From a virus (lineage: Duplodnaviria; Heunggongvirae; Uroviricota; Caudoviricetes): DNA of 14,491 nucleotides. Made by a program: the position numbers and the translations under genes. Position 1 is the first letter of the stretch; each line of letters begins with the position of its first letter. The DNA lies in IMG/VR virus record IMGVR_UViG_2579778989_000010. One strand, given 5' to 3'. Positions 1-14,491 of the stretch are shown in pieces. A model generated the notes under the pieces. That model had not been told where the DNA came from. It saw nothing but the letters and a program-made list of their open reading frames with translations, and ran no database searches.

Positions 1-738
1 TCATTCACTCTCTTTCAAACCAGTTTTAACTGTTTGTGGTTTTGGGTAAGGCTGGACTTTGAATAGCTTTGTGTTAAGGCGTTTTCTGGCTCTCTTGTCC
101 AGAAACCGGATGTAACGAAACTGACGGAATTTATGAACACTGGCTCTGTCGATATTAGCCCGCAGATGTTCACCTCGCTGTCCTCCTCGTTTGATTGCAT
201 TCTTGCAAATCTCGTGATACCACTCGCCATCAAGTTCATAGAATGTTGTTTCATGACTGCCTACATAATCAAAATTGCTTGCCTGGTACACGACACCAAG
301 ACAGCCACAACGCTCATCTGCAAACGACTGAACCCACTGCACCTGCGGATAAAGTTGTCTGATTAGTTTGAGCGCGTAACTGATTGCCCTTGATTCGGAG
401 TTTCTCGGCATACAGTCATGCAGCCATAACCGGTTAAGCTCCATATATTCGCGGTTCTGCGTGCCAGTTACGACGCGTGCACCATTGTTTGGATTAAGGG
501 CATAACCCCATTGCATTACGCCAACCAGCTCCCGTTCTGAAAATATGCCCAGATGAAGGTAGGAATTATTTACGAAACGATGGCTGTAATGTTTATTGAC
601 GACGACCAGCCGGGCCAGCCAGCAACTTATTGTCTCAACCCGTAACTCACGGGAGCCATAACCGACGATATTGTCGTTATAGTGAATAAGTTCAGGCGTG
701 CTGATGATACGGGATGTAACTTGCTTTCTGTTCCCCAC
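1..738 (-). CDS. mom: Mom-like DNA modification protein; start uncertain (GTG at 738-736 is one candidate, ORF frame is open up to 933)
   Basis: Long ORF in the other frame overlapping the 3' end of a clear com homologue, as in Mu com-mom; the ~230-245 aa portion downstream of the com stop fits Mom size. Identification is by context rather than recognised Mom motifs. Confidence 0.55.
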
Positions 739-892
739 GACAGGATTTCCTTGTGTATGTGGGGTGCTCTGTGGCGCTCTGAGATGTGATTTGATTGAGG
801 GTTTTACAGCGCGGACATTTAACTTCCAGATAACTGAAGCTGGCTCGTGCCAGTAGCTTGTTACAATGTCGGCACCGTATGTTTCGATACAT
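692..892 (-). CDS. com: Com zinc-finger translational activator of mom
   Basis: Translation [35 protein letters not shown] has the CxxC...CxxC finger and close similarity to Mu Com (IRCKNCNKLL...EIRCPRCK); GGAGG Shine-Dalgarno about 8-10 nt upstream of the ATG at 892; the ORF track's longer form from 937 lacks an RBS. Confidence 0.75.
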
Positions 893-937
893 GGCCGCAT
901 AACCTCCTGCTTTGTTGTTGATATCTTTATCACTCAA

Positions 938-1030
938 TCGATCGACAAAAACGATCGATTTGATTTATTTAATTGATACAACAAATAACACGAAATGTCA
1001 TTAGCGAAAATTTATGAGTTTGATCACTAA
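938..1030. promoter_or_regulatory. AT-rich region upstream of com with three GATC (Dam) sites, two inside a repeated ATCGATCG palindrome; candidate mom/com regulatory region
   Basis: GATC at 940-943, 953-956 and 1022-1025; in Mu, Dam methylation of GATC sites upstream of mom controls repressor binding. No confident -35/-10 pair found. Confidence 0.3.
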
Positions 1031-1148
1031 TTTTAAACGGTGCTGTAACGCATAAGTGCTGAATGATTGTACATTTGAATACCGCAAAGCAAACAAATCA
1101 ACTAATTTATAGAAGTCAATTGGTTAATTGCCAGCGTAAGAGGCTGCT

Positions 1149-1442
1149 ATGGACAATCATGTAACGACGAGAAATCGAAAAATGATTGAAAATGCGGAAA
1201 TCTATAATGATTATTTTTCCGATTATTCAGATGCCTGCAAATACAGTTCGAGTGCGGGAGAGTTCATATGCTTCAACTTTTTTATTAAATCTTATGTTTT
1301 TCCTCCACTGCAAGAAGATGGAGGTGTGCCACCTCCTGAAATCACTTTGCACCGTATAGCCTCCGTCTCAATGATGGAGCAACAGGCTAATGAGCTGTAT
1401 AGCATTCTGGGAACGATTCTACAAAAGCGTGAATCGGACTAA
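1149..1442 (+). CDS. hypothetical protein (97 aa), AT-rich, divergent from com
   Basis: ATG preceded by AAGAGG Shine-Dalgarno about 6 nt upstream; followed by two hairpins; no recognisable domain. Confidence 0.5.
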   Translation: MDNHVTTRNRKMIENAEIYNDYFSDYSDACKYSSSAGEFICFNFFIKSYVFPPLQEDGGVPPPEITLHRIASVSMMEQQANELYSILGTILQKRESD

Positions 1443-1523
1443 TGATACCGGTTCATTTGCCTGCCCGGATGGGGAAGCAGGATTGACTGCTCCATAAGCA
1501 GCTATATTTCTGAATACGAAATA

Positions 1524-1552
1524 CTATCCAGCGATTACATATGGCTGGATAG
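1524..1552. repeat. perfect 9-bp inverted repeat CTATCCAGC-(11 nt)-GCTGGATAG
   Basis: Read directly from sequence; lies between convergent genes; could be an RNA hairpin or a protein-binding palindrome. Confidence 0.5.
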
Positions 1553-1577
1553 CGGCAAAGATGTTTTCATTAGTGTC

Positions 1578-1610
1578 AAACCGGCAGAGGACACCACCGG
1601 TTTGTATTGT
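1578..1610 (+). terminator. hairpin AAACCGG-(12 nt)-CCGGTTT followed by GTATTGT; weak candidate terminator between convergent genes
   Basis: 7-bp stem with a partly T-rich 3' flank on the plus strand; lies 3' of both 1149..1442(+) and 1610..1864(-). Confidence 0.3.
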
Positions 1611-1864
1611 TACATCATGGTACTGTCAGTTCCGGGCTGAGCCGGGTCTGGTTGCTCTGGCTGCGCGTCGGTTTTCGGCTCATTATCAGCATCACTGGCC
1701 GCAACTGCTGGCCCAATAAGTTTTGCCAGCACTTCATCAACGTAAGTGTCGATTTGTGCCTCAAAATCCTTGCGGACCTGCGCTTTCAGCAACTTATTTA
1801 CTTCACCGGAATACAGTGCCTGTTTTACCAGGTCTTCAGTGACGGTGCCTTTAATTTCTGGCAT
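1610..1864 (-). CDS. hypothetical small acidic protein (84 aa)
   Basis: ATG preceded by strong AAGGAGG Shine-Dalgarno; C-terminal half is Asp/Glu/Pro/Gln-rich; no recognisable domain. Confidence 0.55.
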   Translation of the reverse strand: MPEIKGTVTEDLVKQALYSGEVNKLLKAQVRKDFEAQIDTYVDEVLAKLIGPAVAASDADNEPKTDAQPEQPDPAQPGTDSTMM

Positions 1865-1899
1865 GTATATCCTCCTTATGCGGGAATAAAGCCCTGCAA

Positions 1900-2082
1900 T
1901 CAGGGCTGGGTCGGGTCTTTTGGGAGCGGAGTTACCTGCGCTGTTTTACTGAGTTTTTCAGCTGCTGCGTCCTCAATTTTGCGGCGAACATAATTTCTGA
2001 TGGCCTTATAACCACCACTCACCAGATATAACGCACATACTGCCGTGCAGAAATACAATAAAATAAGCTGTAAAAATGTCAT
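1900..2082 (-). CDS. small membrane protein (60 aa): one N-terminal hydrophobic helix and a charged C-terminal tail
   Basis: ATG at 2082 preceded by GGGAGG Shine-Dalgarno about 5 nt upstream (the ORF track's start at 2094 has no RBS); MTFLQLILLYFCTAVCALYLVSGGY is a predicted transmembrane segment. Confidence 0.45.
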   Translation of the reverse strand: MTFLQLILLYFCTAVCALYLVSGGYKAIRNYVRRKIEDAAAEKLSKTAQVTPLPKDPTQP

Positions 2083-2178
2083 TATCCCTCCCAATTATTG
2101 ACATGGTGTTGACACCGGTAATATCTGTTAGGTAAAAAGGTGCACTGCATTTTTTGCTTTGGATATAACGATCTTTTT

Positions 2179-2220
2179 GCCGCCGGTTTCTTGTTTTCCC
2201 TTACCGGCGGCATTTTTTTA
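2179..2220 (+). terminator. intrinsic terminator, plus-strand specific: GCCGCCGGT-(15 nt)-ACCGGCGGC followed by ATTTTTTTA
   Basis: 9-bp GC-rich stem plus a 7-T run on the plus strand; the minus-strand RNA has A's 3' of the stem, so it should not terminate the esterase transcript. Confidence 0.5.
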
Positions 2221-2226
2221 TCCTGC

Positions 2227-4281
2227 TTACGCGTTATTCACTTCCACCACGATACTGTCAATCAGTACCGGGTAAGTCGCATTTTTAGTGATATCGGTCA
2301 CGCGCAACTTGTCTGCCGTAAACGTGCCGACCGGAGACTGCGACAGCATGAATGGTGTCCCGTCCTTACCATCAATGACCGGCGTCACCTCAATACTGTT
2401 GTTACCGGCAAAACGGAAGCCCAGCGTATGCCATTCGTTATTAAATGCGCCGAATGACCCCAGCTTCGTGTTCTGCGCCGTGTTTCCTTTGTGATACATC
2501 ACGTTAAGGTCTGTGGCATCGCTCTGTACGTAGAACGATGCCAGCAGGTTATGACCGGCATTTCCTTCCAGAGTAACCCCTTGCGGCAGGGCAGAAACCG
2601 GCCAGTACAGCGCCAGTGCGTACTGATTAGCCGTAAGCGCGCCATCGAGTTTAAAACGACAACTGACAAGACCACCTTTACCCAGCAGGTCCGCACCATT
2701 ACCAGCATCATGCTCAAGGTACCAGGGGGCTCTTCCTGTTTCCTTGGTCAGTTTCATTGCCTTACCCCCGCTGGCTCCGGCATCATCCACGATTTGAGCC
2801 TTGCCACCTCCGGCAGCCCAACCCTGTGGTGTCAACCGTCCTTCAGACTCAGATGCCCGGTAAGCAAATAGCGTACTCATCGTCGTGGTGTCTGCGGGTG
2901 GCGTGGACGGTTTTGATGGTGTATCAGGTGACGGCTTCTCATCCGGTGGTGTCACGGTCTGCCCGCGCATCAGTTCAGCCGTGCGCCCTGCATGGAGCAT
3001 AATAGCTGAGGCCAGACGGTCTGAAATGACGCCCCTGCGTGCCCATGAGCTGAAATGGCTGTCACGCTGTGTCGAAACAAAACTGCCCTGGGTTCGGGAT
3101 GCTGCACCGTAATACCCGACAGCCACAATATCCGGGTCTTCCGCCGGAGCATTCGTTGGCGTGCTCTGTCCATTCTCATCCGTCAGGAACGGTACAAAGA
3201 AAATTTTCTGTGCTTCCTTGCCTTTGTAGCCACCGTATACTGCCTCATATTTATCGGTGCCAGCGTTTTTCCAGTAATACGTGGTATCACCGCAAATCCA
3301 CGGCACCGTGGTGGCATTTCCACTCACGCACTGCGCAGCAAGCGGAGCCAGGTCAGTTCTGAACTGCTGAACCATGGCCGTGAATAAACTATTATGCTGC
3401 TGGCTTCCTGAGGCAAGGTCTGCCTCTCCCTGCATCCAGACCACAGCCAGAAGTTTGTTTTTCGGGTTTTTCGCCAGCGCGACTTTGGTGCGGCTTACCA
3501 GGTCCTGATACAGAGGTTTACCGGCCCCCCAGCGTGAAGAATCAGCGGAAGCACCGCTGGCCTCACTGAATGAGCCGTCGGCTCCAGTGGTGAATGCTGA
3601 CCCGCCACGACAACAGGGCACCAGAAGTATCCCGGCATTCTGTGGGATATAGGGAAGCAGTTTTTTGGCAATATGCAACCCCTGACCGACAGTCCCGTAC
3701 TGGCCTTTTGCCAGATCAGCTTTCGGGTGGTTTATCCCGCTCATATCCTGAACATCATGCAGGCAGTGGTCTGCCGGAATGATGTCGTTGTATGTACACG
3801 ACGTACCGTTGGGCGTTACCGTACTGCGGCGTGCCAGTTGCTTAATGCGTGGGTCCGGGCGGTCAAACGAATCCGGTAACGGCAGCCCCTCGCCGTAGGC
3901 CATGCCATTTGACTGACCCGCGAGAATGACAACAAAGTAATATTCCGGCTCTGAACTGCTGCCATTCGTGCTACCGGAAGGCCCGGCGTTATCCGGTGCA
4001 TTCCAGTCGGAGGGCGTGAGCGTTCCGGCCACGTCAGATGTGATTGGAATGATGCCAGTCACGCCTGAACTGGTGATTTCTGCACTGGGATTACCGGATA
4101 CCGGCATTACCCATAATGGCTCTTTCGTGCTGAAGCGGATCACGCAGTCTGCGAAGGTGATCCCCCCTTTATTACCCGAAGGGCGGAAAGGGCTTTCAAT
4201 AAATGCCACCGTGCCACCGGCAACCTTGACTGAAAACTCTCCGGGCATGGCGGAGAGCATTTTCCACTTGGAGTCTGACAT
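2227..4281 (-). CDS. SASA/SGNH-family esterase (sialate O-acetylesterase-like; architecture resembles prophage NanS-p), 684 aa
   Basis: SGNH/SASA-like motifs in order: ILAGQSNGMAYG (block I GQSN), VWMQGEAD, RDSHFSSW (candidate DxxH block); N-terminal ~100 aa and C-terminal ~250 aa extra domains; Shine-Dalgarno is weak. Confidence 0.65.
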   Translation of the reverse strand: MSDSKWKMLSAMPGEFSVKVAGGTVAFIESPFRPSGNKGGITFADCVIRFSTKEPLWVMPVSGNPSAEITSSGVTGIIPITSDVAGTLTPSDWNAPDNAGPSGSTNGSSSEPEYYFVVILAGQSNGMAYGEGLPLPDSFDRPDPRIKQLARRSTVTPNGTSCTYNDIIPADHCLHDVQDMSGINHPKADLAKGQYGTVGQGLHIAKKLLPYIPQNAGILLVPCCRGGSAFTTGADGSFSEASGASADSSRWGAGKPLYQDLVSRTKVALAKNPKNKLLAVVWMQGEADLASGSQQHNSLFTAMVQQFRTDLAPLAAQCVSGNATTVPWICGDTTYYWKNAGTDKYEAVYGGYKGKEAQKIFFVPFLTDENGQSTPTNAPAEDPDIVAVGYYGAASRTQGSFVSTQRDSHFSSWARRGVISDRLASAIMLHAGRTAELMRGQTVTPPDEKPSPDTPSKPSTPPADTTTMSTLFAYRASESEGRLTPQGWAAGGGKAQIVDDAGASGGKAMKLTKETGRAPWYLEHDAGNGADLLGKGGLVSCRFKLDGALTANQYALALYWPVSALPQGVTLEGNAGHNLLASFYVQSDATDLNVMYHKGNTAQNTKLGSFGAFNNEWHTLGFRFAGNNSIEVTPVIDGKDGTPFMLSQSPVGTFTADKLRVTDITKNATYPVLIDSIVVEVNNA

Positions 4282-4366
4282 CGTCTTTTCTGCCTGTTTC
4301 TGAATTAAACAGAGTCAGAATAGCGACCGCTGAAAAATATGTGTTTTGCGGAAATTCAAAAAAGCG

Positions 4367-4939
4367 TCACGGTACTTTTGGTGACGGAGCTGGTGAGGCA
4401 GGAAAATAACGATAAAGGGTGGAAAGGCCAATATCAAATATCAGTGCGATTTGTTTACGGGACTCGCCATTAGCCAGCAAACGGGCGATTTGCTCCCGCT
4501 CTTTCTCTGTCAGTTTCTGAGGTCTGCCGCCATGACGCCCCTGAGCACGGGCAGCAGCAAGACCCGCGCGTGTACGTTCAATAATGAGTTCCCGCTCCAT
4601 TTCCGCCAGCGCGCCCATTATATGGAAAAAGAAACGTCCCATGGGAGTGGATGTATCAATATTGTCCGTAATGCTGCGGAAGTTAACGCCGCGTTGCCGG
4701 AGTTCTTCTGTTAAAAGGACAAGGTGCTGCATACTGCGTCCAAGGCGATCCAGTTTCCAGACCAGCAGGGTATCCCCTGGCCGGAGTCGCTTTAATGCGC
4801 GTTTAAGTCCGGGACGCTCCCTTGTCTTACCGCTTATTCTGTCTTCGAAAAACAGCTCACATCCTGCACATTCCAGCGCATTTCTTTGTAGCGCCGTATT
4901 CTGGTCATTTGTTGACACCCTGATATACCCAATCAGCAT
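4367..4939 (-). CDS. gin: Gin/Pin-family serine DNA invertase
   Basis: MLIGYIRVSTNDQNTALQRNAL...VWKLDRLGRSM...MGRFFFHIMGALAEMERELIIERT is near-identical in pattern to Mu Gin / e14 Pin (catalytic Ser in RVST); AAGGAA Shine-Dalgarno and a TATAAT-like hexamer upstream. Confidence 0.9.
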   Translation of the reverse strand: MLIGYIRVSTNDQNTALQRNALECAGCELFFEDRISGKTRERPGLKRALKRLRPGDTLLVWKLDRLGRSMQHLVLLTEELRQRGVNFRSITDNIDTSTPMGRFFFHIMGALAEMERELIIERTRAGLAAARAQGRHGGRPQKLTEKEREQIARLLANGESRKQIALIFDIGLSTLYRYFPASPAPSPKVP

Positions 4940-5004
4940 ACGATTTCCTTATTATAAAAAGCCGGAATTGTCGCATGAGGAATAAAACAGAGTTAATCCT
5001 GGCT

Positions 5005-5030
5005 TTCCTGAAAACCTCGGTTTACGGGAA
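5005..5030. other. gix-like recombination (crossover) site for Gin
   Basis: TTCCTGAAAACCTCGGTTTACGGGAA is an imperfect palindrome whose AAAACCTCGGTTTAC core matches the Mu gix/hix core as I recall it; sits between gin and the S' segment as in Mu. Confidence 0.6.
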
Positions 5031-5378
5031 ACGGTAAACAGGGCGGCGAATGCTCTGCCATCGGACGGCACCGCCGTTGCCGCGAATAGACTCGCCACCC
5101 CAAGAAATATTAATGGGGTTCCCTTTGACGGGACGCAGGACATAAACATCACTTCTGGTATAACACAGCAGGATGCGGATTCCCGATATATCCAGGATAT
5201 CAGGCTGGGAGCAGAGAACAGGCAGGTAATGTACGGTGGGGCATATTACTCTGCGTACGGTAATGTTATGGCAGGCCTGCAGATTGACAGTAAAGTTGAT
5301 GCTTCAAACGATTTTATAGCATTCAGACCCCTGCAAAAATTAGTCGGAGGTACATGGATTACGGTATCTCAGTTATAA
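5031..5378 (+). CDS. tail-fibre variable C-terminal segment (S'-like), start-less; expressible only when fused to a constant S part by inversion
   Basis: Frame is open from just upstream of gix to TAA at 5376-5378 with no upstream start; translation ...AANALPSDGTAVAANRLATPRNINGVPFDGTQDINITSG... resembles tail-fibre repeat regions; followed by a tail-fibre assembly gene. Confidence 0.5.
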   Translation, partial: TVNRAANALPSDGTAVAANRLATPRNINGVPFDGTQDINITSGITQQDADSRYIQDIRLGAENRQVMYGGAYYSAYGNVMAGLQIDSKVDASNDFIAFRPLQKLVGGTWITVSQL

Positions 5379-5429
5379 ATAGTCAGTAAATAATATATTT
5401 TAAAACAGATTTATTTCCAGGAGGATTTT

Positions 5430-5951
5430 ATGGAACTAAAAAATATAACCCGTTATTATCCTGAAAATATGCCATATGGTAATAATGTTCAGTATTTCCA
5501 GAGTGAAGATGGTAAGGATTTCTACGAATCCCTGCCATTATTCACCAAAAAATATAAACTTTGCATAACACCTGACAGCGGCGTTATCTGCTCAATATCA
5601 CAGGACGCCTCGGCGCTGTATCCTGCGGGGTTTTCTGTGGTTGAGGTCGATGAACTCCCTGAAGGCACGGATATTTCAGGAAACTGGAAGTTTGATAATG
5701 GCATAATCTCCCGTATTCCGGTTAACTACGCAAGAAAACTGGAAGCAATGCGCCAGTCATATCTTAATCAGGCATATGAAAAAATTAATGACTGGAGAAC
5801 GGAGCTACAACTGGGCACCATCAGCGATGAAGACAGAGCAGCACTTACCCAATGGATGGCATACATCAGTCAGGTGAAGAAAATGGAACTACCCGCCATT
5901 AAAACAGAAGCTGAATTTAACGCCATTAAATGGCCTGAGCAGCCACAGTAA
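5430..5951 (+). CDS. tail fibre assembly protein (U'/Tfa family)
   Basis: AGGAGG Shine-Dalgarno; 173 aa; LGTISDEDRAALTQWMAYISQVKKM... ending WPEQPQ resembles Mu U/U' and other tail fibre assembly proteins. Confidence 0.8.
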   Translation: MELKNITRYYPENMPYGNNVQYFQSEDGKDFYESLPLFTKKYKLCITPDSGVICSISQDASALYPAGFSVVEVDELPEGTDISGNWKFDNGIISRIPVNYARKLEAMRQSYLNQAYEKINDWRTELQLGTISDEDRAALTQWMAYISQVKKMELPAIKTEAEFNAIKWPEQPQ

Positions 5952-5955
5952 TAAA

Positions 5956-5973
5956 GAAGGCCGGAAGGCCTTC
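5956..5973. terminator. short hairpin GAAGGCC-GGAA-GGCCTTC immediately 3' of U'
   Basis: 7-bp stem read from sequence; no strong T-tract, so terminator function is uncertain. Confidence 0.3.
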
Positions 5974-5982
5974 TGAATATCA

Positions 5983-6231
5983 TTATATACTTGCAGCCGT
6001 CACCCATGCTTCATTTAACAGATACTGCAACGGCCGGTAATACACGCCGCCGACGTTATCTGCCGTATTCTTACCGACATCCTGTACTTTAATTCCGGTA
6101 AGAACATTGCCGCCCCCCAGATTCAGATCCCAGCTTTCCCATGTTCCGGGCATATGTGCGGTCACCGACCCCAGTCTTATGGCGGTTAATGGCGTTTTCC
6201 CCGCCATCAGCGATAAAGCCCTGCCGGTGCA
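5983..6231 (-). pseudogene. start-less open frame of unknown origin, possibly a C-terminal remnant of a late (tail-fibre-related) gene left at the deletion junction
   Basis: Frame open for 82 codons from a stop at 6232-6234 with no upstream partner; overlaps the gemA-like ORF's 3' end in another frame; Gly/Asn/Val-rich like fibre C-termini. Weak. Confidence 0.25.
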
Positions 6232-6481
6232 TCACTTTCCAGATGGCGCGAATTTTGGCGGTCACCGTCCCCGGTTTTAAGGCCCGGTTAACCGGCTTCT
6301 GACGCACTTTAAAACCGCGTTTTTTGAAAACATCCAGCACGCGGGATAACTCATCCGGTGACATATCCCGGCAACTGGGTTTGCCGGTGGCTGCCAGTAG
6401 TACGGATGTGTAGGTCTCATGGTCAAGCTGTAGATCGCGTTTTGCGACATGTATTAAGGTAATCAGGGAAGCGCGATTCAT
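6089..6481 (-). CDS. gemA: GemA/gp16-like early protein (DUF1018-like); C-terminus probably altered by the deletion junction
   Basis: MNRASLITLIHVAKRDLQLD...GKPSCRDMS...KIRAIWKVMHRQGFIADGGENAIN matches the Mu-like gp16 pattern as I recall it; the last ~25 residues lose the expected pattern; GGAGA Shine-Dalgarno. Confidence 0.5.
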   Translation of the reverse strand: MNRASLITLIHVAKRDLQLDHETYTSVLLAATGKPSCRDMSPDELSRVLDVFKKRGFKVRQKPVNRALKPGTVTAKIRAIWKVMHRQGFIADGGENAINRHKTGVGDRTYARNMGKLGSESGGRQCSYRN

Positions 6482-6545
6482 TATCGTGTCTCCGTAACAA
6501 CAGGCGGCATGGCAACGCCGCCCGGATAAAACTAAAGGTATCGAT

Positions 6546-6956
6546 ATGAAAATAGATTACGATGAAGTATTAAGTATTCTCACAACTTTTCAGGATGCTG
6601 AAACACCTTTCCTTACACTACAGGATCTGGGCATGGCTGAGGCAGAAGGAGAGGAAAAGGATAAAAAAGTTTTTCATCTTATGCTTCTCGCTGATAATGG
6701 CTCAATTGTTAATGGTGATATGCAGTCAGAAACACCCAAATATATTGGTTTCTTTTTCCATTCTCTGGGCGTTGGTTTCAGAAACACGCCCATTATGCTT
6801 ACCCAGCAGGGGCATGATTTAGCTAACGCCCTGAGAAAAAAACCAATCCTTGAAAGAATCAAAAAGGAGTTTACAGACGCACCATTTGATCTAATTAAAG
6901 AAGTTACCAAATCAATGTTAACCAGGTTCGTCAAAGAACGTATTGGGATTGACTGA
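6546..6956 (+). CDS. hypothetical protein (136 aa), AT-rich, opposite strand to the early operon
   Basis: ATG with AAAGG Shine-Dalgarno; visibly more AT-rich than flanking genes; divergent from the gemA-like gene; 3' end overlaps the convergent gene 6918..7226 by 39 bp. Confidence 0.5.
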   Translation: MKIDYDEVLSILTTFQDAETPFLTLQDLGMAEAEGEEKDKKVFHLMLLADNGSIVNGDMQSETPKYIGFFFHSLGVGFRNTPIMLTQQGHDLANALRKKPILERIKKEFTDAPFDLIKEVTKSMLTRFVKERIGID

Positions 6957-7226
6957 ACAACTTAATTCAGCCAGTAATCGCAGGGCGGCGACAGCCGCCT
7001 GCTTGTCACTTCTTTTAGCTATTTCCGCAAGAGTATGCACAATCCATAACGGACTTAACGCCACGGCTGAATCCAGAATCATGTCATCCATAATAATTTC
7101 TGGCATATCCCGCTTGTCACATTCTTTATCCATAAAAGAAACGAATTTCTCTGCATCTTCCGGTTTCATGCCTCCGGCGATAAGGATTTTGCGATATTCA
7201 TAAGACGATCTTAATTCAATACTCAT
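6918..7226 (-). CDS. hypothetical protein (102 aa)
   Basis: ATG with AGGTGA Shine-Dalgarno 5 nt upstream, immediately after the TAA of the preceding gene. Confidence 0.5.
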   Translation of the reverse strand: MSIELRSSYEYRKILIAGGMKPEDAEKFVSFMDKECDKRDMPEIIMDDMILDSAVALSPLWIVHTLAEIAKRSDKQAAVAALRLLAELSCSVNPNTFFDEPG

Positions 7227-7241
7227 TATTCACCTGCCTGC

Positions 7242-7592
7242 TTAATCTGTTTCCAGTGCTTTGCTACGGGCTATAGCCTCACATTCAAAAAATACCGACT
7301 CCGGCACGCGCTCTTTTAATTCACGAACAAGGAAATCATTAACGCGTTCATGACGTCTTATATTTCTTTCCTTTTCCTCCTGGCGCAATACAGCAAGGCG
7401 GTATTCAACAGCCCGGCGTTGTTTCTGAAAGACAGCCAGTGCTTTTCTGGCAGCATTACGCCATGCATCATCGCCACATGGTGCGTATTCAAGCTGAAAT
7501 TTAATCTCTTCAATAGTTTCTTTGATTTTTGCCAGCAAGCTAAGACAGTCGCTTATTGTCTCCAGCTTTTCATTATCAATATAACTTCTCAC
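7242..7592 (-). CDS. hypothetical early protein (116 aa from GTG; charged, probably helical)
   Basis: GTG at 7592-7590 overlaps the upstream TGA (GTGA coupling); the ORF track's longer form from 7634 overlaps the upstream gene by 46 bp. Confidence 0.45.
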   Translation of the reverse strand: MRSYIDNEKLETISDCLSLLAKIKETIEEIKFQLEYAPCGDDAWRNAARKALAVFQKQRRAVEYRLAVLRQEEKERNIRRHERVNDFLVRELKERVPESVFFECEAIARSKALETD

Positions 7593-7918
7593 GCATTCAC
7601 CTCCCGTAATTCCGGTAAAGCCGAAATATGACACCAGTGCGTCACCTGTCCGTCTTCATCTTCAAGGCAGGCTCCGGTTTCTTCATCAACAAAAAAGCCT
7701 TCATACCCCATATGGCCGATGCGCAGCTCCTGACGGTGACCATACTGAACAATCAGCACGACAGCCTCCATATCAGGTGGGAAAGCATCATTCAGTGAAT
7801 GCCAGGGATAACCGCGTAAATCCCCGAAATAAACACCGGTCAGCGTTCCGCCACAGAGCGGCATTCCGGCGGCACACACAAGAGGTTCATCTGATTCAAC
7901 AAATAAGGTCGTTATCAT
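7589..7918 (-). CDS. hypothetical early protein (109 aa)
   Basis: ATG overlaps the upstream stop as ATGA; same strand and tight packing as the rest of the operon. Confidence 0.5.
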   Translation of the reverse strand: MITTLFVESDEPLVCAAGMPLCGGTLTGVYFGDLRGYPWHSLNDAFPPDMEAVVLIVQYGHRQELRIGHMGYEGFFVDEETGACLEDEDGQVTHWCHISALPELREVNA

Positions 7919-8466
7919 GGCGTTAACTCCCGTAATACAGCGTCCTCGGCAGTCCGGCGACGGTAATAAACTGCGTGAGCAGAATGTTCAGATATTCCAA
8001 ACTTTTCGCCAATTTCCCGGAATGACAGACGGCGTGGGTAATCGGAATCACGCAGCGCACGTATAAGACGTACATCATCATCAGATATGCGCGTGCCGGG
8101 GCGTAACTCTCCGCACTTTGTTAATCCAGCACCAATCATTCCTGCCCGACATCTGACAGAATCTTTATTACGTCCGAGATATTCTCCCATTTGCTGGCAG
8201 GTCATTGTTCTGGCATTTTTTCGAATAAACTTATCTTCATCAGGTGTAAATCTTGGGTGTTTATATTTCAGTAACTCCGGGTATGAACTGCGCAATACAC
8301 CAGTCCGGTTATATACAGCCCAGACAGTTCTTTTTATTCTGGCAGCAATATCCTTAACCGGGGTGGATGAATAAAGCGCAATCAGTAGCGCATCTTCTTC
8401 AGGTGTCCACGCGCGGACATGAGCGGGTGTACGACCTTTTCGCCCCATGTGTTGTAAAATCATCAT
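7915..8466 (-). CDS. putative DNA-binding protein with two Myb/SANT-like repeats and a C-terminal helix-turn-helix-like segment (183 aa)
   Basis: Repeats WTPEEDALLIALY...VWAVYNR and RFTPDEDKFIRKN...; C-terminal RLSFREIGEKFGISEHSAHAVYYRR; GGGGGTGA Shine-Dalgarno. Confidence 0.5.
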   Translation of the reverse strand: MMILQHMGRKGRTPAHVRAWTPEEDALLIALYSSTPVKDIAARIKRTVWAVYNRTGVLRSSYPELLKYKHPRFTPDEDKFIRKNARTMTCQQMGEYLGRNKDSVRCRAGMIGAGLTKCGELRPGTRISDDDVRLIRALRDSDYPRRLSFREIGEKFGISEHSAHAVYYRRRTAEDAVLRELTP

Positions 8467-8469
8467 ACA

Positions 8470-8985
8470 TCACCCCCTGACTCGCTTTTCGGCAGCATAA
8501 AACTCATCAGACAGAATTTCGGTCATTTTCCGTTTTGCGGAATCATCTTCGCACTGAAGATAAATCACATTGTCAACGCAGAACCAGTTCACGGGACCAT
8601 ACAATATTGCTGAGAAGTCAATACCCAGCCAGAACAACAGGGCATCGGTTCTGGCATACGTGACGGGCGAATATTCACGCCACAGACTGTTCAGTTCATC
8701 AGAGGCAACACGCAGGGCTTTAGGGATACGTGATGTGCGCGGTGTGCAGCTCCAGCCATTCGACGCAGTCGGTTTTCGCCATAAGTCGCGATGAAAAGGA
8801 TATTTGTCCTCCGTAAAACGCAGTCCCTTAAAACAAAAACCACTGATACTGAATTCAAATACCGACCGGCACGCAACATTCAGCACGGCCTCAAGGCGTT
8901 TCGCCTCATCTTTTACCGTCTGGCAGTCCTGCTGGTATTTTTGCCACGCAGCCAGCGCGGAAGGGTTTGATGTTTTAAAGAACAT
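8470..8985 (-). CDS. hypothetical early protein (171 aa)
   Basis: ATG overlaps the upstream TAA (TAATG); GGAGGTG Shine-Dalgarno. Confidence 0.5.
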   Translation of the reverse strand: MFFKTSNPSALAAWQKYQQDCQTVKDEAKRLEAVLNVACRSVFEFSISGFCFKGLRFTEDKYPFHRDLWRKPTASNGWSCTPRTSRIPKALRVASDELNSLWREYSPVTYARTDALLFWLGIDFSAILYGPVNWFCVDNVIYLQCEDDSAKRKMTEILSDEFYAAEKRVRG

Positions 8986-9518
8986 TACGCCACCTCCGCA
9001 GATATCCCGGCAGGCGCTGCTGTCCGGTCAACAATCAGGTAGCGCAGAACACGCGCGGTGATATTCCAGCCGCTTAAACCGCAGATGATGACACCCAGGC
9101 GAATGTCGATATACGCCATCACAAACTGGGGCACGCCTTCTTTCATGGCCTGCTCATCAACTTCAGCCACCACATAAACGGTTTCACAGGTCAGAACGCC
9201 CTGAGCAAATTCCCACGCCATCGACGGAATATCATGCCCCTCAATCCATGGCAGGGATTTTCTGAAGCTGCACCACTGAACATCATCAGCCGCAGATTCC
9301 TGTCTGCATTTGCGACGAATCGGCTGCACCGGGCGGGGACGCGGAATATCATAAAAACCGTTACATTCCGTCAGCACCCCGGCATCAACCGCATCACGCA
9401 GAAAATAAACCATGGAGGATGGCGGCATATTCATTTTTTCAGCCAGTACGCCGCAGGTCAGACGCCCGTAAATACTCAGCCAGTTTTTAACCCCTTCAAG
9501 CACTTTTGCATCAATCAT
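8985..9518 (-). CDS. hypothetical early protein (177 aa)
   Basis: ATG with GGAGGA Shine-Dalgarno; co-oriented and tightly packed. Confidence 0.5.
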   Translation of the reverse strand: MIDAKVLEGVKNWLSIYGRLTCGVLAEKMNMPPSSMVYFLRDAVDAGVLTECNGFYDIPRPRPVQPIRRKCRQESAADDVQWCSFRKSLPWIEGHDIPSMAWEFAQGVLTCETVYVVAEVDEQAMKEGVPQFVMAYIDIRLGVIICGLSGWNITARVLRYLIVDRTAAPAGISAEVA

Positions 9519-9521
9519 GAA

Positions 9522-10064
9522 TTATTCCTCCGTCAGCGCCACATATTCAGAATGTTTAATTTCCTGGCATTCTTCAGGAATACATCCGTTTATTTCCCTG
9601 CCATAAGCGCCCACTTTAAACACCACGCACAGGGCATCACGGGAGAACGAAGGGGTCCACCAGGAGTCCGTGTTAAACATGGAGGGGATTCTCATTACCC
9701 CCAGCTTTTCACAGAGCCAGACAAGGAAATCAGGACGCTTTCTTAACTCGCGTTCAGCGGCTTCAATCATTGCGGCAATCGCCGGTCCTTCAGGGCATGA
9801 CTCATCAGGTCTGGCTATAAAGCACTGTCCGCCACCGATAAAAGCCACATCATCGCGCTTACGCCAGCCCGCAGGCAGAGCACCGGCAAAATAAAACTCA
9901 CTGATTCTGTCCATGGCGAACGGCTTTAAGCGCAATCCGGCAGCGCCTGTATTTTTCAGTAATGTCCGAAGAATACTGTTGCGTAGCGGTAAAACAGCCT
10001 GTTGATATTTGGTGAAATATTTATTTGTCTGCACACGGTCTAATTTGAAATAAAAATATGCCAT
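9522..10064 (-). CDS. hypothetical early protein (180 aa)
   Basis: ATG with AAGGAA Shine-Dalgarno; preceded by an AT-rich ~100 bp spacer after gam. Confidence 0.5.
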   Translation of the reverse strand: MAYFYFKLDRVQTNKYFTKYQQAVLPLRNSILRTLLKNTGAAGLRLKPFAMDRISEFYFAGALPAGWRKRDDVAFIGGGQCFIARPDESCPEGPAIAAMIEAAERELRKRPDFLVWLCEKLGVMRIPSMFNTDSWWTPSFSRDALCVVFKVGAYGREINGCIPEECQEIKHSEYVALTEE

Positions 10065-10161
10065 ATTTCCGATTCCTTATTTTCAGCTTTCAGGCGCAAG
10101 CAGTCCCCTGACGCGAGCGCCATAATTAAAATGAAGTGATATTTAAATAATTAATGCGGTG

Positions 10162-10692
10162 TTATTTATTCAGTCCGGCATCCTGTTCAAAAGGCTCGAC
10201 ATAAAAACTTTCAGCGCCTTTATTCACCTTTATACCGGCAATGCCTTTCACCGCATCCGGCTCCGCCAGGACGGCTTCCTTGTTCACTTCCTCTTTCGTG
10301 CGGATGAATCGCTCAAGCCCCATACGGCGCAGCGTGTCAATCACACCTTCCACATCACGGCTGACGCTGCATGATGGCGTTCCCAGCCGCCATGACACCG
10401 TTCCGGTGGTCAGATTGGCAGTTTTGGTTTTGCCGCCGTTCGTCAGCTCATCACGGTTGGTTTTACACCAGTCCTGAATCCCTTTAAAAAGCACTTTGAT
10501 TTGCTTTTTAAGATTTTCAATCTGCGGCGTATAACGGGCGGTGATTTCTGCCACTTCATCATTCATCGCCGTTTCCAGGCGCAGCGCCTCTCGCTGAATA
10601 TCGCCCAGGGTGCGGATATCGCGGCTGACTTCTTCGCGGGTCTGCGGTGCGGCCTCGGCTACAGCCTTTAATTTTGTAACGCGTTTTGCCAT
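10162..10692 (-). CDS. gam: Gam host-nuclease inhibitor (Mu Gam / Ku-like DNA end-binding protein)
   Basis: RLETAMNDEVAEIT and NRDELTNGGKTKTANLTTGTVSWR...LERFIRTKEEVNKEA closely match my recollection of Mu Gam; 176 aa; AAGGA Shine-Dalgarno. Confidence 0.8.
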   Translation of the reverse strand: MAKRVTKLKAVAEAAPQTREEVSRDIRTLGDIQREALRLETAMNDEVAEITARYTPQIENLKKQIKVLFKGIQDWCKTNRDELTNGGKTKTANLTTGTVSWRLGTPSCSVSRDVEGVIDTLRRMGLERFIRTKEEVNKEAVLAEPDAVKGIAGIKVNKGAESFYVEPFEQDAGLNK

Positions 10693-10703
10693 TTTGTTTT
10701 TCC

Positions 10704-10997
10704 TTATTGCAATGTATCTGGTGCGTTCTGCAAGGAGCGGCGCTCAATGCTGCTTTTCACCCCCAGAGCCTGCATGGAACCCTGAAGTTCATCTGTCAGA
10801 AACTGAATAATTGTGGGGCTGTGATATTTAAGAATTTGCGCATAAACATCACATGGGCCTGTCGGTCTGTTCTCCGTATCACGTTCGATTTTTACAGTGG
10901 CAGTAACCCCCTCCGTGATTTCCTGACTATCATTACCGGCTGGCTTTACTTCATGCATTACGTGGTTAAATTCAAAAATAACGCGTACTTTGCTCAT
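10704..10997 (-). CDS. hypothetical early protein (97 aa from the internal ATG); N-terminal motif shared with the upstream gene
   Basis: ATG at 10997 has AGGGG Shine-Dalgarno; begins MSKVRVIFEFNHVMHEVK, paralleling MSKVVHIIFEYKEHVIHK of the neighbour. Confidence 0.45.
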   Translation of the reverse strand: MSKVRVIFEFNHVMHEVKPAGNDSQEITEGVTATVKIERDTENRPTGPCDVYAQILKYHSPTIIQFLTDELQGSMQALGVKSSIERRSLQNAPDTLQ

Positions 10998-11001
10998 GGA
11001 A

Positions 11002-11274
11002 TTACCCCTGCTGATTAAATTCATTACCGTTAATAACCCCGGAAGCCATGCCCCTGTCTTTCATGAATGCACTGGCTTTCATTGCCACAAGCTCTGCGAA
11101 GTTTCTGCTTTCCGCGAGCATAACCACCCCAAAAATCATGGCGGGGCCATCACCTTTCTGCTTTATCCCCGTTGAACGTATGTCCAGACTTACCCCCATG
11201 CGCACTGTTCCATCAGCGTTTTTATGGATAACGTGCTCCTTATATTCGAAAATAATGTGTACGACTTTACTCAT
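11002..11274 (-). CDS. hypothetical early protein (90 aa); N-terminal motif shared with the downstream gene
   Basis: ATG overlaps the upstream stop (ATGA); similar first ~18 residues to the downstream gene. Confidence 0.45.
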   Translation of the reverse strand: MSKVVHIIFEYKEHVIHKNADGTVRMGVSLDIRSTGIKQKGDGPAMIFGVVMLAESRNFAELVAMKASAFMKDRGMASGVINGNEFNQQG

Positions 11275-11552
11275 CCTCTGGTCCTCGTTCTGTTTGGATA
11301 ACTGACCCGGCGTCTGACCTCACGGCAGAACCGAATCATGGCATTAAAGGCTTCTTCCTCCGTCACCGCTTCCGGTATCCCCGGAACCAGTAACTGCTCC
11401 TGTTCATCACGTCCATGACGCGCCATAACCTCAATCACATGCCGTACCGTGGCAGGCTTTCCGGCAACTATCGGCAATGCACCTTCCGGCAGGACGTAAC
11501 CAAACTCAATAAGACCACTCGACCACGCCCATGCAATGAGATTTTTTTTCAC
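11271..11552 (-). CDS. hypothetical early protein (93 aa), GTG start
   Basis: GTG at 11552 preceded by GGGAGGTG Shine-Dalgarno; adjacent to the upstream stop. Confidence 0.45.
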   Translation of the reverse strand: MKKNLIAWAWSSGLIEFGYVLPEGALPIVAGKPATVRHVIEVMARHGRDEQEQLLVPGIPEAVTEEEAFNAMIRFCREVRRRVSYPNRTRTRG

Positions 11553-11553
11553 C

Positions 11554-11820
11554 TCACACCTCCCAGTAAACCGTGCAGCCGCTGATGCGGGTGGCCTTCA
11601 CACGGCGGCGCAGGCCGTTGGTCTGTATGGTGATTTCAATTTCACCGGTTCCCTGCACGTTGCCTACCGGCGGCGTGGTTTTCAGTGCAAAACGTTGCGG
11701 ATAGCGCTTACTGCGTTCCAGTACCGCACCGGCAAGTTCGGTCAGACGGCGCGCGCTGTTCAGGGAGTCGAATAAATTCATTTTGTTACCGCAGGATTGC
11801 ATATTCATATAACACCTCAT
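11554..11820 (-). CDS. hypothetical early protein (84-88 aa; start at 11820 or at the internal ATG 11808, which has an AGGTG Shine-Dalgarno)
   Basis: ORF directly follows the kil-like gene; start choice ambiguous. Confidence 0.4.
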   Translation of the reverse strand: MRCYMNMQSCGNKMNLFDSLNSARRLTELAGAVLERSKRYPQRFALKTTPPVGNVQGTGEIEITIQTNGLRRRVKATRISGCTVYWEV

Positions 11821-12042
11821 TTAGCTGACTTGTTTCGCACCAACAGAACGGCATATTCCGCTGTAAACTTCTGTCGCACCTTCGCGATCAAGTCCGGCAG
11901 ATATCACCATTCGTGTGCGGTCATTAAATTCAAAAAGTAAATCGCCACATTCTTTATTTTCGGCCAGTGAAATCACCTTCACGTTATCGAAATTAACCAG
12001 GTAAAAGCGTCCGTAAATATCAGGAATATTAAATACCGCCAT
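11821..12042 (-). CDS. kil: Kil-like small early protein (73 aa)
   Basis: Position immediately downstream of B with overlap of the B stop, as for Mu kil; size ~74 aa; ATG 12042 has AGGTG Shine-Dalgarno. Identity by position and size only. Confidence 0.4.
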   Translation of the reverse strand: MAVFNIPDIYGRFYLVNFDNVKVISLAENKECGDLLFEFNDRTRMVISAGLDREGATEVYSGICRSVGAKQVS

Positions 12043-12044
12043 AA

Positions 12045-12977
12045 TCACACCTGTGAGAGTAATTCAGGGTTGGTATAAACCTCTTTAAAGGCCGCATTAA
12101 TATGTTTTTCTGTCAGCGCCGCGCCTTCACCGCTGGCGGTGAGCCACGCCTGGTTAAGCGTATGTGTCAGAACGCGTAACGCTCCCGGCTTTTCAGCGAT
12201 AGCCTGCATGACGGCCAGCTCGGCCTCACCACTGATCCCCCACGCCATGGCAATGGCCAGCACATCCGCCTTTTTGGCCTTGCGAAGTTGTTTTGTACGG
12301 GCAAGACGGCTGAACAGGCGCGATAAATCATCAAAGGCGCGGCGTCCACCTTTAAACAATCCGCGCGGGTTACCAATAAGCACCATCCCGATCCCCGTGG
12401 CGTCCTGAATTGCCCGGAGTTGCTCCAGACCGTCAATACCAAGATGATCCGCCTCATCCACAATCACCAGTCCACGCGTTCCCATCAGGCGACGGCGGAT
12501 GGCGCGGGATAATGCCCCTTTGTTCGCGCGGGTGTAATCAATCCCCAGCGCATCGGCCAGCTCCAGCAGACACTCCGTGACGCTGGAGTGCGCGGGTGAC
12601 AGGGTGATCATCCAGGTGTTTGGTTGCTCCTGGCAGTAATTACGGGCAGTGGCCGTTTTACCCACACCCGGTACGCCCACAATAACGTTAATACAGCCCA
12701 TCAGGCGAACCGCCTGAAACAGTGCGCGCAGCTCCTGGACTGTCTGAGTTTCCACAAACTGCGGCGGTTCCGGCAGTGCGCTTTGTTTATTCCAGTTCTC
12801 ATACCAGGAGCGCAGGGAAGCAGCCACAGCAGCGTTATCGCCTTTATATTTTCCCTTACGGAAAGCCGATAATGTGCCGTCGGAAATTCCCGCCTCTCTG
12901 GCGATGGCATACTGCGTCAGTACGCCGCCATCAATAAGTTCATCAATGGTCTTGATTACATCGTTAATATCGGTCAT
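12045..12977 (-). CDS. B: MuB-like AAA+ ATPase (transposition target-DNA activator) with N-terminal HTH
   Basis: Walker A GVPGVGKT, VIVDEADHLG (Walker B), KPGALRVL, and N-terminal GISDGTLSAFRKGKYKGDN all parallel Mu B; ~310 aa versus 312 in Mu; GAGGTGA Shine-Dalgarno before ATG 12977. Confidence 0.85.
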   Translation of the reverse strand: MTDINDVIKTIDELIDGGVLTQYAIAREAGISDGTLSAFRKGKYKGDNAAVAASLRSWYENWNKQSALPEPPQFVETQTVQELRALFQAVRLMGCINVIVGVPGVGKTATARNYCQEQPNTWMITLSPAHSSVTECLLELADALGIDYTRANKGALSRAIRRRLMGTRGLVIVDEADHLGIDGLEQLRAIQDATGIGMVLIGNPRGLFKGGRRAFDDLSRLFSRLARTKQLRKAKKADVLAIAMAWGISGEAELAVMQAIAEKPGALRVLTHTLNQAWLTASGEGAALTEKHINAAFKEVYTNPELLSQV

Positions 12978-13059
12978 ATTATTCACCTCGCTTGAGACAG
13001 CATTCTCCGAGACTGAAACCTCAAATAACCTGAGTCACCCCTCGGGTTATTTTTTTATT

Positions 13060-14491
13060 TCAGGCCAGCGGATCACTTTCTTTTAATTTCGCTTCGAGCA
13101 ACTGCAATCCCCGCTGGAAATTACGCTCGTATTCTTCATCAGGTTCATCGTCAGCGACCGGTTGCTGAACGGTCACCGTATTACCCACAGGGCGGTATAT
13201 GTTTTCCAGCCAGGGCTCCTGCGGCTTGTGCTCCAGCACGTTGACAACCTCATCCTCGGCATCACGGATTTTTTCCTCTGCGCGTTTACGCATGCCTTTA
13301 AGGCGCTGCTGCTGTTTGTAGTATTCCGCGCTGACAGGGAAGGCTTCGCGTTTATTGCCGTCCCATATCCGAGTAATACAGAAACGGTTTGCCATGATGG
13401 CGAATACCGTGCTGTATGGCACCGGCTACGGCGAAAACATTTTCAGCCAGGTCAAGGCTCCAGCCCACCACAAAGCGCGTGCCACCGTCGATAACAAAGG
13501 TCACTTCCGGTGCGAATGGCCGCCCGTGAACCGGGTGCGCGCATTTCAGCTTCATGCCGTGACCGTCACCAATCCAGACATAATTCACCGGCATTCTGGA
13601 CCAGTCGCGGCGCGTGAATCCCTCAAGCTGACGGTATTCACTGCCAGTTACCCGGCCTTTTTGTTTCACCACTTCCGGCAGTTTCTTCATTGCGCGGCGA
13701 ATGGTGTCATAAGAGGGCATGATATCGAGCATATAAGGCTCATCAGCGTGCCGGTGCTGCCATTCAGCAACAAAATCCTCGTAAGCCTCGGTCATTGGTC
13801 GGCCGTTTGACTGGCGATACTGCGCCAGAAATTCGGGCAGCCAGTTAATATCTTCGGCTTTTATTTCCTGGCGTTTACCCGGTGCCAGTAAAAGCAGGCG
13901 TTCAGCGGCGTTCTGTGCCTTGTTAAAGGCCGCAATCCAGCGTTTCAGCGTGATTTCACTCAACGCGCGGCTGTTTCCCTTTTTGGCGTTCGCCGTCTCA
14001 ACCATTGCCACAATGCGCTCGTCCAGTTGTGATCGTGCCAGGCTGTTAACGAGGAACCGGATAGCCTTAGCGCAACTAAAGCCGGGTTGTTGCGCGATTT
14101 TCAGCACCTCGCTGACGATCGCTATTCGTGCCTCTGCCACTTTACGTTGGTTTTCAGTCAGGGCATTGAGGCGTTCGACCATCAGTTGGGGTGATCCGCG
14201 ATATGCCTCCACCGCATCAACCACGGCAGGTGAGCGTCTGGCCTTTGTCACCACCGGAGCCGGTGATTCATCGGCTTTTTGCGTCATCAGTTGCAGGGCG
14301 TAGCGTTCACGTAATGCCTGCTGCGTCACTTCAGGTAAACAGTCGATGCTGTATTCAGTTGCTTTAGAGCCTGAGCGACGACGGGAACAACAGCTTTTCC
14401 CTTGTACGTAACGTTGTAATGCCTGGCGAATACCTTTTGTTGTAGCAGGCATTCCGGGCGCGCCAATCAGTTCTTTTGCAATGACATACAT
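13060..14491 (-). pseudogene. A: MuA-like DDE transposase, 5' end at or beyond the window edge, disrupted by an internal deletion and frame change near 13340-13430
   Basis: N-terminal 379-aa frame aligns with MuA from the N-terminal DNA-binding region through the first two catalytic Asp regions (NYVWIGDGHG..., FLYYSDMGRQ) and then hits a stop at 13352; a second frame (13060..13422) encodes the MuA C-terminus (EYYKQQQRLK..., PVGNT..., DDEPDEEYE). About 200 residues including the catalytic Glu are absent. Confidence 0.7.

Follow-up and report, generated by a model that had tools for sequence, protein, structure and literature searches.

An intact gin gene beside a single gix site in a Mu-like prophage of Escherichia coli: an inversion switch probably orphaned by a microhomology deletion

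For inversion, enzymes of the Gin type require two inverted recombination sites together with an enhancer bound by Fis, all on one supercoiled DNA molecule, and a single gix site is therefore inert. The DNA analysed here, a stretch of 14,491 nucleotides from IMG/VR record IMGVR_UViG_2579778989_000010 (hereafter the window), raised the question of whether an apparently intact gin gene still has anything to invert, and what became of the second site. The original prediction had described positions 4940-5951 as an intact gin with one gix-like site, a complete U' and a tail-fibre segment without a start codon, the partner site and the constant part of the fibre gene being absent.

The window was found to be a Mu-like prophage of E. 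coli running from the stop codon of mom to the start codon of A, with A, B, gam and gemA at one side and gin, com and mom at the other. Pfam profiles identified the N-terminal domain of MuA, MuB, Gam, Gp11, GemA and Gin, and com and mom, to the left of gin, were annotated on identical loci. The Mu genes B (12045-12986), gam (10162-10692) and gp11 (8985-9518) all lie on the minus strand. The A transposase gene (13352-14491, minus) is truncated to 379 of 696 aa and matched only HTH_Tnp_Mu_1 in Pfam; the intact A gene of the closely related prophage of strain JKHS016 is 2091 bp. Of gemA (Mu gp16 family; the intact gene in JKHS016 is 513 bp), only a 5' fragment is left at 6189-6481 (minus), covering positions 1-87 of the 119 of the Pfam GemA profile. 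The gene continues out of frame into Sv, a variable part of the fibre gene, giving a 130-aa chimeric ORF at 6089-6481 (minus) with ∼97 GemA codons. Between gin and com/mom, the product of a 684-aa gene (2227-4281, minus) combines a sialate O-acetylesterase-like domain (SASA) with DUF6645 at the C-terminus. No Mu gene corresponds to it at this position, and the gene was kept in every context of the prophage family among the matches listed; it may be cargo that serves lysogenic conversion or modifies surface glycans. A search of the phage collection gave no close relative of the gin-fibre module, only Mu-like inserts in two Stx phages that matched the early region.

The gin gene itself lies at 4367-4939 on the minus strand, just outside the range that the original prediction had placed under its name, the rest of which was as described. 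It encodes an intact Gin-family serine DNA invertase of 190 aa with a Resolvase domain (PF00239, 1.6e-51) followed by HTH_7 (PF02796, 4.9e-15). The protein gave a gap-free alignment of 184 aa with Gin of phage Mu (74% identity) and matched PDB entries 4m6f/3uj3 at an E-value of 2.5e-88. The catalytic R8-S10 motif (RVST) was kept, within a YxRVSTxDQ stretch conserved with Mu Gin. Helix 1 of the DNA-binding domain reads EQIARLL, aligned with EQAGRLL of Mu Gin, and thus contains the Q-x-x-R-L motif that is specific to Fis-dependent invertases, in which the Fis-contact residues of Hin are Q151, R154 and L155 (PMC3798978). The domain layout, the size of ∼190 aa, the Fis-contact residues and the 26-bp site were all those of the Gin/Hin/Cin/Pin invertases. 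At the DNA level there were 0 mismatches to gin of JKHS016, whose product is WP_000904914.1; JE86-ST05, FORC_043 and NCCP 13905, that is, all relatives examined, carry a Gin under this accession. The full intactness claimed for gin was therefore borne out by the 190-aa frame, both domains, the catalytic motif and the gap-free alignment.

The expression signals that had been proposed for gin stood only in part. An AAGGA ribosome-binding site was read from the sequence at 4946-4950 (minus), with a perfect TATAAT at 4951-4956 adjoining it. A sigma-70 consensus scan between gix and gin returned no promoter. The TATAAT is without a -35 partner and abuts the ribosome-binding site, and because of the latter it was dropped as a demonstrated promoter; its role is putative and the promoter signal weak. 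The gene is expressed at a low level in Mu lysogens and probably likewise here, and Gin is presumably still made and active. Conservation with Mu is good in the 5' part of gin, which has two 15-mers of the form G-N13-C in common with the Mu gene, at nt 22-36 and 71-85. Invertase genes of this family carry a cis-acting recombinational enhancer with two Fis sites in this part, and from the conservation and the two 15-mers an enhancer may be present here too; the Fis consensus GNNYRNNWNNYRNNC had one match common to both genes, at nt 71-85, and is too degenerate for an enhancer call. A 66-aa ORF at 4952-5152 (minus), which crosses the gix site towards gin antisense to the alternative fibre tip Sv', is probably spurious. 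FORC_043 and NCCP 13905 have counterparts of it, annotated as a hypothetical protein of 65 aa. This ORF spans the crossover, so its sequence would change with the orientation of the segment.

The one gix-like site that had been predicted is present at 5005-5030. It reads TTCCTGAAAACCTCGGTTTACGGGAA, that is, TTCCTGAAAACC-TC-GGTTTACGGGAA, a site of 26 bp in which a 2-bp core is flanked by imperfect inverted half-sites of 12 bp each. It is perfect and unique in the window, where 0 such sites were expected by chance, and both its alignment and its place beside gin identify it as the orthologue of Mu gixR. In the search for further sites, both half-sites were scored against known gix and hix halves (maximum 24, threshold at least 17/24). 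The scan covered the window and a locus (L005) that holds the entire prophage in the same deleted form with its chromosomal flanks (the ppnP side and the aroM-aroL-proC side). One 24/24 site was found in the window and one in the whole of L005, and no second gix was detected in the window, the deleted prophage or the flanks. The next-best site, at 6305-6330 inside gemA, scored 19/24 and has a non-matching GC centre. It was rejected both as a partner and as the cause of a deletion, owing to its wrong core, its distance from the junction described below and its chance-level score, shuffled windows yielding ∼1 site at the threshold; a GC core cannot recombine with a TC core.

The absence of the partner from the window might in principle reflect the limits of the window, which ends at gene boundaries (the mom stop and the A start), with ∼2 kb of prophage end beyond it. 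If the partner gix and the constant fibre part, Sc, were retained there, the segment would still be invertible. This is extremely unlikely, because L005 contains the entire deleted prophage and its flanks with one gix only, because no S- or Sc-like gene was called on the loci with the deleted prophage, and because gixL lies ∼1.3 kb from gixR in all intact relatives, exactly in the deleted interval. A second inverted gix together with a constant S part somewhere in the prophage was what the original prediction had named as evidence against itself; neither was found on L005. The predicted absence of the partner, and with it the lack of an inversion substrate in cis for Gin, was thus upheld over the complete deleted prophage. 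A functional Mu-type switch has two inverted sites on the same DNA, as in the relatives, where they are 1317 bp apart; the window has one.

Next to gixR, the silent alternative C-terminal fibre segment Sv' occupies 5017-5378 on the plus strand, with ∼115 codons and a stop and no start codon of its own. Its frame is open from 4986 to 5378 and the first start codon, an ATG, occurs only at 5229, which agrees with the earlier view that the S'-like segment cannot be expressed. To take this as a defect was not justified: a Mu-type G segment normally has no start codon in its silent half, and inversion in FORC_043 has joined these 115 codons to Sc. The Sc-Sv' fibre of FORC_043 (296 aa) ends in the same residues as Sv' from GLRETVN onwards, with one R/K difference. 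The following gene U' (5430-5951, plus) was found to be complete, as had been stated; it encodes a tail-fibre assembly chaperone of 173 aa (Pfam Caudo_TAP, 4.8e-19) that is 32% identical to Mu U' and is annotated as WP_000421093.1 in the relatives.

Two features of this region had been missed, namely a 3' remnant of Sv at 5983-6188 (minus) and a deletion scar at 6182-6188. The Sv remnant, 206 bp long, comprises 67 C-terminal codons and the stop of the tip that was formerly in the expressed orientation. It is 99.95% identical to JKHS016 up to position 6188-6191, and in translation it equals the C-terminal end of S from JE86-ST05, a protein of 293 aa. A GC-rich terminator-like hairpin (5955-5974) separates the convergent stop codons of U' and Sv. 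A 74-aa chimeric ORF at 5983-6207 (minus) begins with 7 codons of gemA DNA in another frame and continues in frame into the last 67 Sv codons. Both this ORF and that at 6089-6481 were created by the deletion, and both lie downstream of the early operon.

The constant part of the fibre gene was absent as predicted: no S- or Sc-like gene was called on the window or on the deleted-prophage loci, L005 included. Fusion to Sc behind the late promoter was the only route by which Sv' and U' could be expressed, and with its loss both are silent; U' is stranded too, with no late promoter and no Sc upstream. Of the further parts of a functional Mu-type switch, the Sc with its start codon and late promoter went with the ∼23 kb described below, and of the two opposed variable 3' fibre parts Sv' is complete while Sv retains only its last 67 codons.

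The arrangement from which these pieces derive could be read from relatives that are 99.9% identical and keep Sc, gixL and an invertible segment of 1317 bp, measured as the distance between the gix cores. An S gene of 293 aa comes after gp48 (YmfQ family) in JE86-ST05, as in many other genomes. The gixL inside the S gene of JE86-ST05 is TTATCGATAACG-TC-GGTTTACGGGAA, and the next 23 nt are the same as those after gixR. The site falls at the same codons as in Mu S, and over the Sc part the identity to Mu S is 47%. FORC_043 carries the segment in the inverted form: Sc is fused to the Sv' sequence of the window to give the 296-aa fibre, U' follows, and Sv lies beside gixR and gin. Among complete E. 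coli genomes, 18 had the window-like orientation and 6 the inverted one, and DLI.5a, TOE17 and AST46 each carry two copies of the prophage, one per orientation. Prophages encoding the identical Gin protein were found in both orientations. Indirectly, these orientations indicated that the system works when whole and that the phage family has an active switch. When JKHS016/JE86-ST05 are compared with FORC_043, the exchange of arms falls within 37 bp that include the gix centre and is a clean gix-compatible case.

The difference between the nearly identical prophages of NCCP 13905 and FORC_043 was also considered as an inversion at the gix centres. This was discarded, for in-silico inversion at these centres did not give FORC_043. 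The crossover was located ∼125 bp into the inverted repeat, ∼110-136 bp inside the gix sites, in a stretch of ∼21-24 bp (TCCCTTTGACGGGACGCAGGA) common to Sv and Sv', and yields hybrid fibre tips. Going by the sequences, the difference is assigned to homologous recombination or conversion and not to an event at the gix centre. Since this crossover is off the gix core, homologous recombination in the ∼140-bp inverted repeat would also reshuffle the segment. It was also noted that the invertible segment of the intact relatives is asymmetric (loci L001, 10684-11565, and L003, 3489-4952), with the chaperone gene U' after Sv' and no U after Sv; Sv either folds without a dedicated chaperone or uses U' in trans. 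Even the JKHS016 prophage, the best match among complete genomes, has undergone rearrangement (L002 18657-28168): the head and tail block is partly inverted, and the genes for a portal-like DUF935 protein, the tape measure, DNA circularization and the baseplate are truncated. The prophage family thus appears to decay often and in different ways.

Comparison with JKHS016 revealed what separates the window from these relatives. By BLAST the window fell into three collinear blocks of at least 99.8% identity, 1-6191, 6182-13371 and 13363-14491. At the first boundary, base-by-base inspection showed that the Sv side matches JKHS016 up to ...CTTATGGCGGTTA and the gemA side from GCGGTTAATGGCG..., the junction at 6182-6188 being a 7-bp microhomology, GCGGTTA, common to Sv and gemA. 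In strain 102651, the homologues of the two breakpoints are 23.0 kb apart. With an intact relative as the yardstick, the gemA-Sv deletion amounts to ∼23 kb; it took gixL, Sc and most of S, as well as the rest of gemA, mor, the lysis genes and all head and tail genes. The second boundary, a 9-bp overlap of the BLAST segments at 13363-13371, marks a deletion of ∼650 bp inside transposase A. With 379 of 696 aa remaining, the prophage is unable to transpose or replicate. Judged by their sequences, both scars look like the products of slippage or illegitimate recombination, and neither is at a gix site or a Mu end.

Taken together, the window is very probably a decayed, immobile Mu-like prophage whose switch was orphaned by a microhomology deletion. 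In the whole phage, Gin would flip a 1.3-kb G-type segment between gixL, at the Sc/Sv boundary in S, and gixR beside gin, and each inversion would exchange the fibre tip Sv for Sv' plus U'. An illegitimate deletion at the 7-bp microhomology would then have fused gemA to Sv, each broken in its middle, with the loss of ∼23 kb, and a second deletion of ∼650 bp would have inactivated transposase A. Left over are gin, gixR, the silent Sv'-U' cassette and a stump of Sv. With one gix there is nothing for Gin to invert in cis, so that the segment would be permanently fixed and no fibre made.

A deletion made by Gin itself, through gixL and a quasi-gix, was considered, as was one made by Mu transposition. 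Gin-family invertases can use quasi-sites, as known from the Cin literature, and a weak one (19/24, with its GC centre) is indeed present in gemA at 6305-6330. However, neither breakpoint is at a gix: that in Sv lies ∼150 bp into the segment from gixL, and that in gemA is 117 bp off the quasi-site. The junction is instead a plain direct microhomology of 7 bp, and the deletion in A, with its 9-bp overlap, bears the same signature, which again indicates slippage or illegitimate recombination. Mu-promoted deletions begin at a Mu end, and this one does not. Either origin is accordingly judged very unlikely. There is even less to be said for an assembly artefact, a collapsed or chimeric contig. It could have been suspected from the best match among complete E. 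coli genomes, which covers only 82% of window positions 4300-6600, and from an exact-match scan in which the 42-nt junction was absent from a collection of species-representative genomes. Yet the identical junction and the 130-aa ORF recur in at least 24 contigs of independent NCBI, ENA and Logan assemblies at the same chromosomal site, and an overlap of 7 bp is far too short to mislead an assembler, so that the chance of an artefact is practically nil.

These carriers, which were found by means of the chimeric 130-aa GemA-Sv ORF, also bear on the age of the deletion. The ORF occurred in 56 index blocks of public assemblies, and at least 24 contigs contained the identical deleted prophage, from NCBI isolates (e.g. 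GCA_013071855.1 and GCA_024636185.1), gut metagenomes, and ENA and Logan assemblies. In 8/8 places among the matches listed, the architecture was the same and the prophage was inserted between ppnP (yaiE) and aroM. Relative to the window, the carriers differed by 0-7 SNPs per 14.5 kb, with none in 4367-5951 (8 contigs). Recurrence in nearly SNP-free form at one site demonstrated that the deleted prophage is real, clonal and recent. By comparison, the exact Gin protein was found in 5547 index blocks, and 10/10 contexts among the matches listed were full-length prophages; the deletion derivative is a young minority variant. In the carriers (L005 1019-1989 and flanks), a 176-aa gene on the opposite strand stands where Mu has its repressor gene, and the left end carries a Ner-like HTH_35 gene. 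The 99.9% identical prophage of JKHS016 sits at another site, a CP4-44-like region, as expected of a transposing phage.

With all carriers near-identical, an intact gin is what a young deletion would be expected to leave, and this intactness is no evidence of selection; with SNPs nearly absent, there is no power to separate neutral retention from selection. It was nevertheless asked whether the orphan gin could be kept by selection for flipping, in trans, a segment elsewhere, be it in another Mu-like prophage or in e14 or the like. Such action is not without precedent. PinQ and PinR of Qin and Rac invert the P segment of e14, and this flipping blocks phage T2; Fin of Fels-2 inverts the H segment, and PinE inverts the G segment of Mu (PMC12529663). 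Gin here is full length and without a sequence difference from the JKHS016 copy, its EQIARLL carries the Q-x-x-R-L motif, the same RefSeq accession occurs in the other relatives examined, with both orientations among them, and some E. coli strains hold two copies of the prophage family. Against a selected role, however, no sign of selection was seen, the 8 contigs showing 0 variants in 4367-5951, and the sigma-70 scan gave no convincing gin promoter. Retention by such selection is therefore regarded as unlikely, and we infer that gin is intact because the deletion is young.

That Gin acts in trans, at compatible sites in other parts of the genome, had been put forward for this locus and would still be plausible. 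The host sequence covered was the deleted prophage with ∼4 kb of flank, and a compatible gix pair may be present elsewhere in the host, for instance in a second Mu-like prophage as in DLI.5a, TOE17 and AST46. A more elaborate version, in which the 16-kb remnant keeps gin as a trans switch of a fibre segment elsewhere, with a PinQ-like surface or anti-phage function and perhaps together with the SASA/DUF6645 gene and com-mom, is unlikely.

By homology, the module belongs to the Mu G-segment family, without the features of a functional switch, namely two sites, Sc and two tips. The gene order gp47, gp48, S, (U), U', S', gix, gin, com, mom is common to both, Gin and U' are 74% and 32% identical, respectively, gixL falls at the same S codons, and the gix sites share the 12-2-12 design and the TC core. 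Unlike Mu, the window lacks gixL, Sc and most of Sv, and inversion is impossible. The intact relatives also depart from Mu: their segment is 1.3 kb and not 3 kb, their fibre 293-296 aa and not 504 aa, they have one chaperone gene (U', no U), the outer half of their gixL is degenerate (TTATCGATAACG), and the 684-aa SASA/DUF6645 gene and three small genes are found between gin and com.

The locus also resembled known orphan invertases and known defective prophages. As with PinQ and PinR in the Qin and Rac prophages of E. coli K-12, an intact small serine invertase is carried by a defective prophage with no invertible segment adjacent. PinQ and PinR are reported not to invert their neighbouring DNA and were shown to act in trans on the segment of another prophage (PMC12529663), whereas for the window Gin such action is conjectured. 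In addition, the window Gin is a close Gin orthologue in a Mu-like and not a lambdoid remnant, and the loss of its substrate is recent, with a readable scar. With grounded, decaying prophages (e.g. PMC6379469) the window shares internal deletions at microhomologies, a dead mobility gene (A), the absence of every structural gene and clonal descent at one fixed place in the chromosome. It is one more example of a grounded prophage, with nothing of substance different, and fits the known category of orphan invertases.

The orphaned gin is thus the outcome of ordinary prophage decay and not of a new mechanism. The value of the finding is mainly in annotation, as it accounts for the presence, beside Mu early genes, of genes labelled 'recombinase', 'partial phage tail protein' and 'tail fiber assembly protein'. 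It also provides a datable case of the orphaning of an invertase by one microhomology deletion. Beyond annotation and a possible use as a test case, the locus represents the usual decay of a prophage. Orphan invertases were recently shown to control anti-phage phenotypes in trans (PMC12529663), and the closely matched prophages with an intact switch in other strains would make the carriers of the remnant a convenient natural test case.
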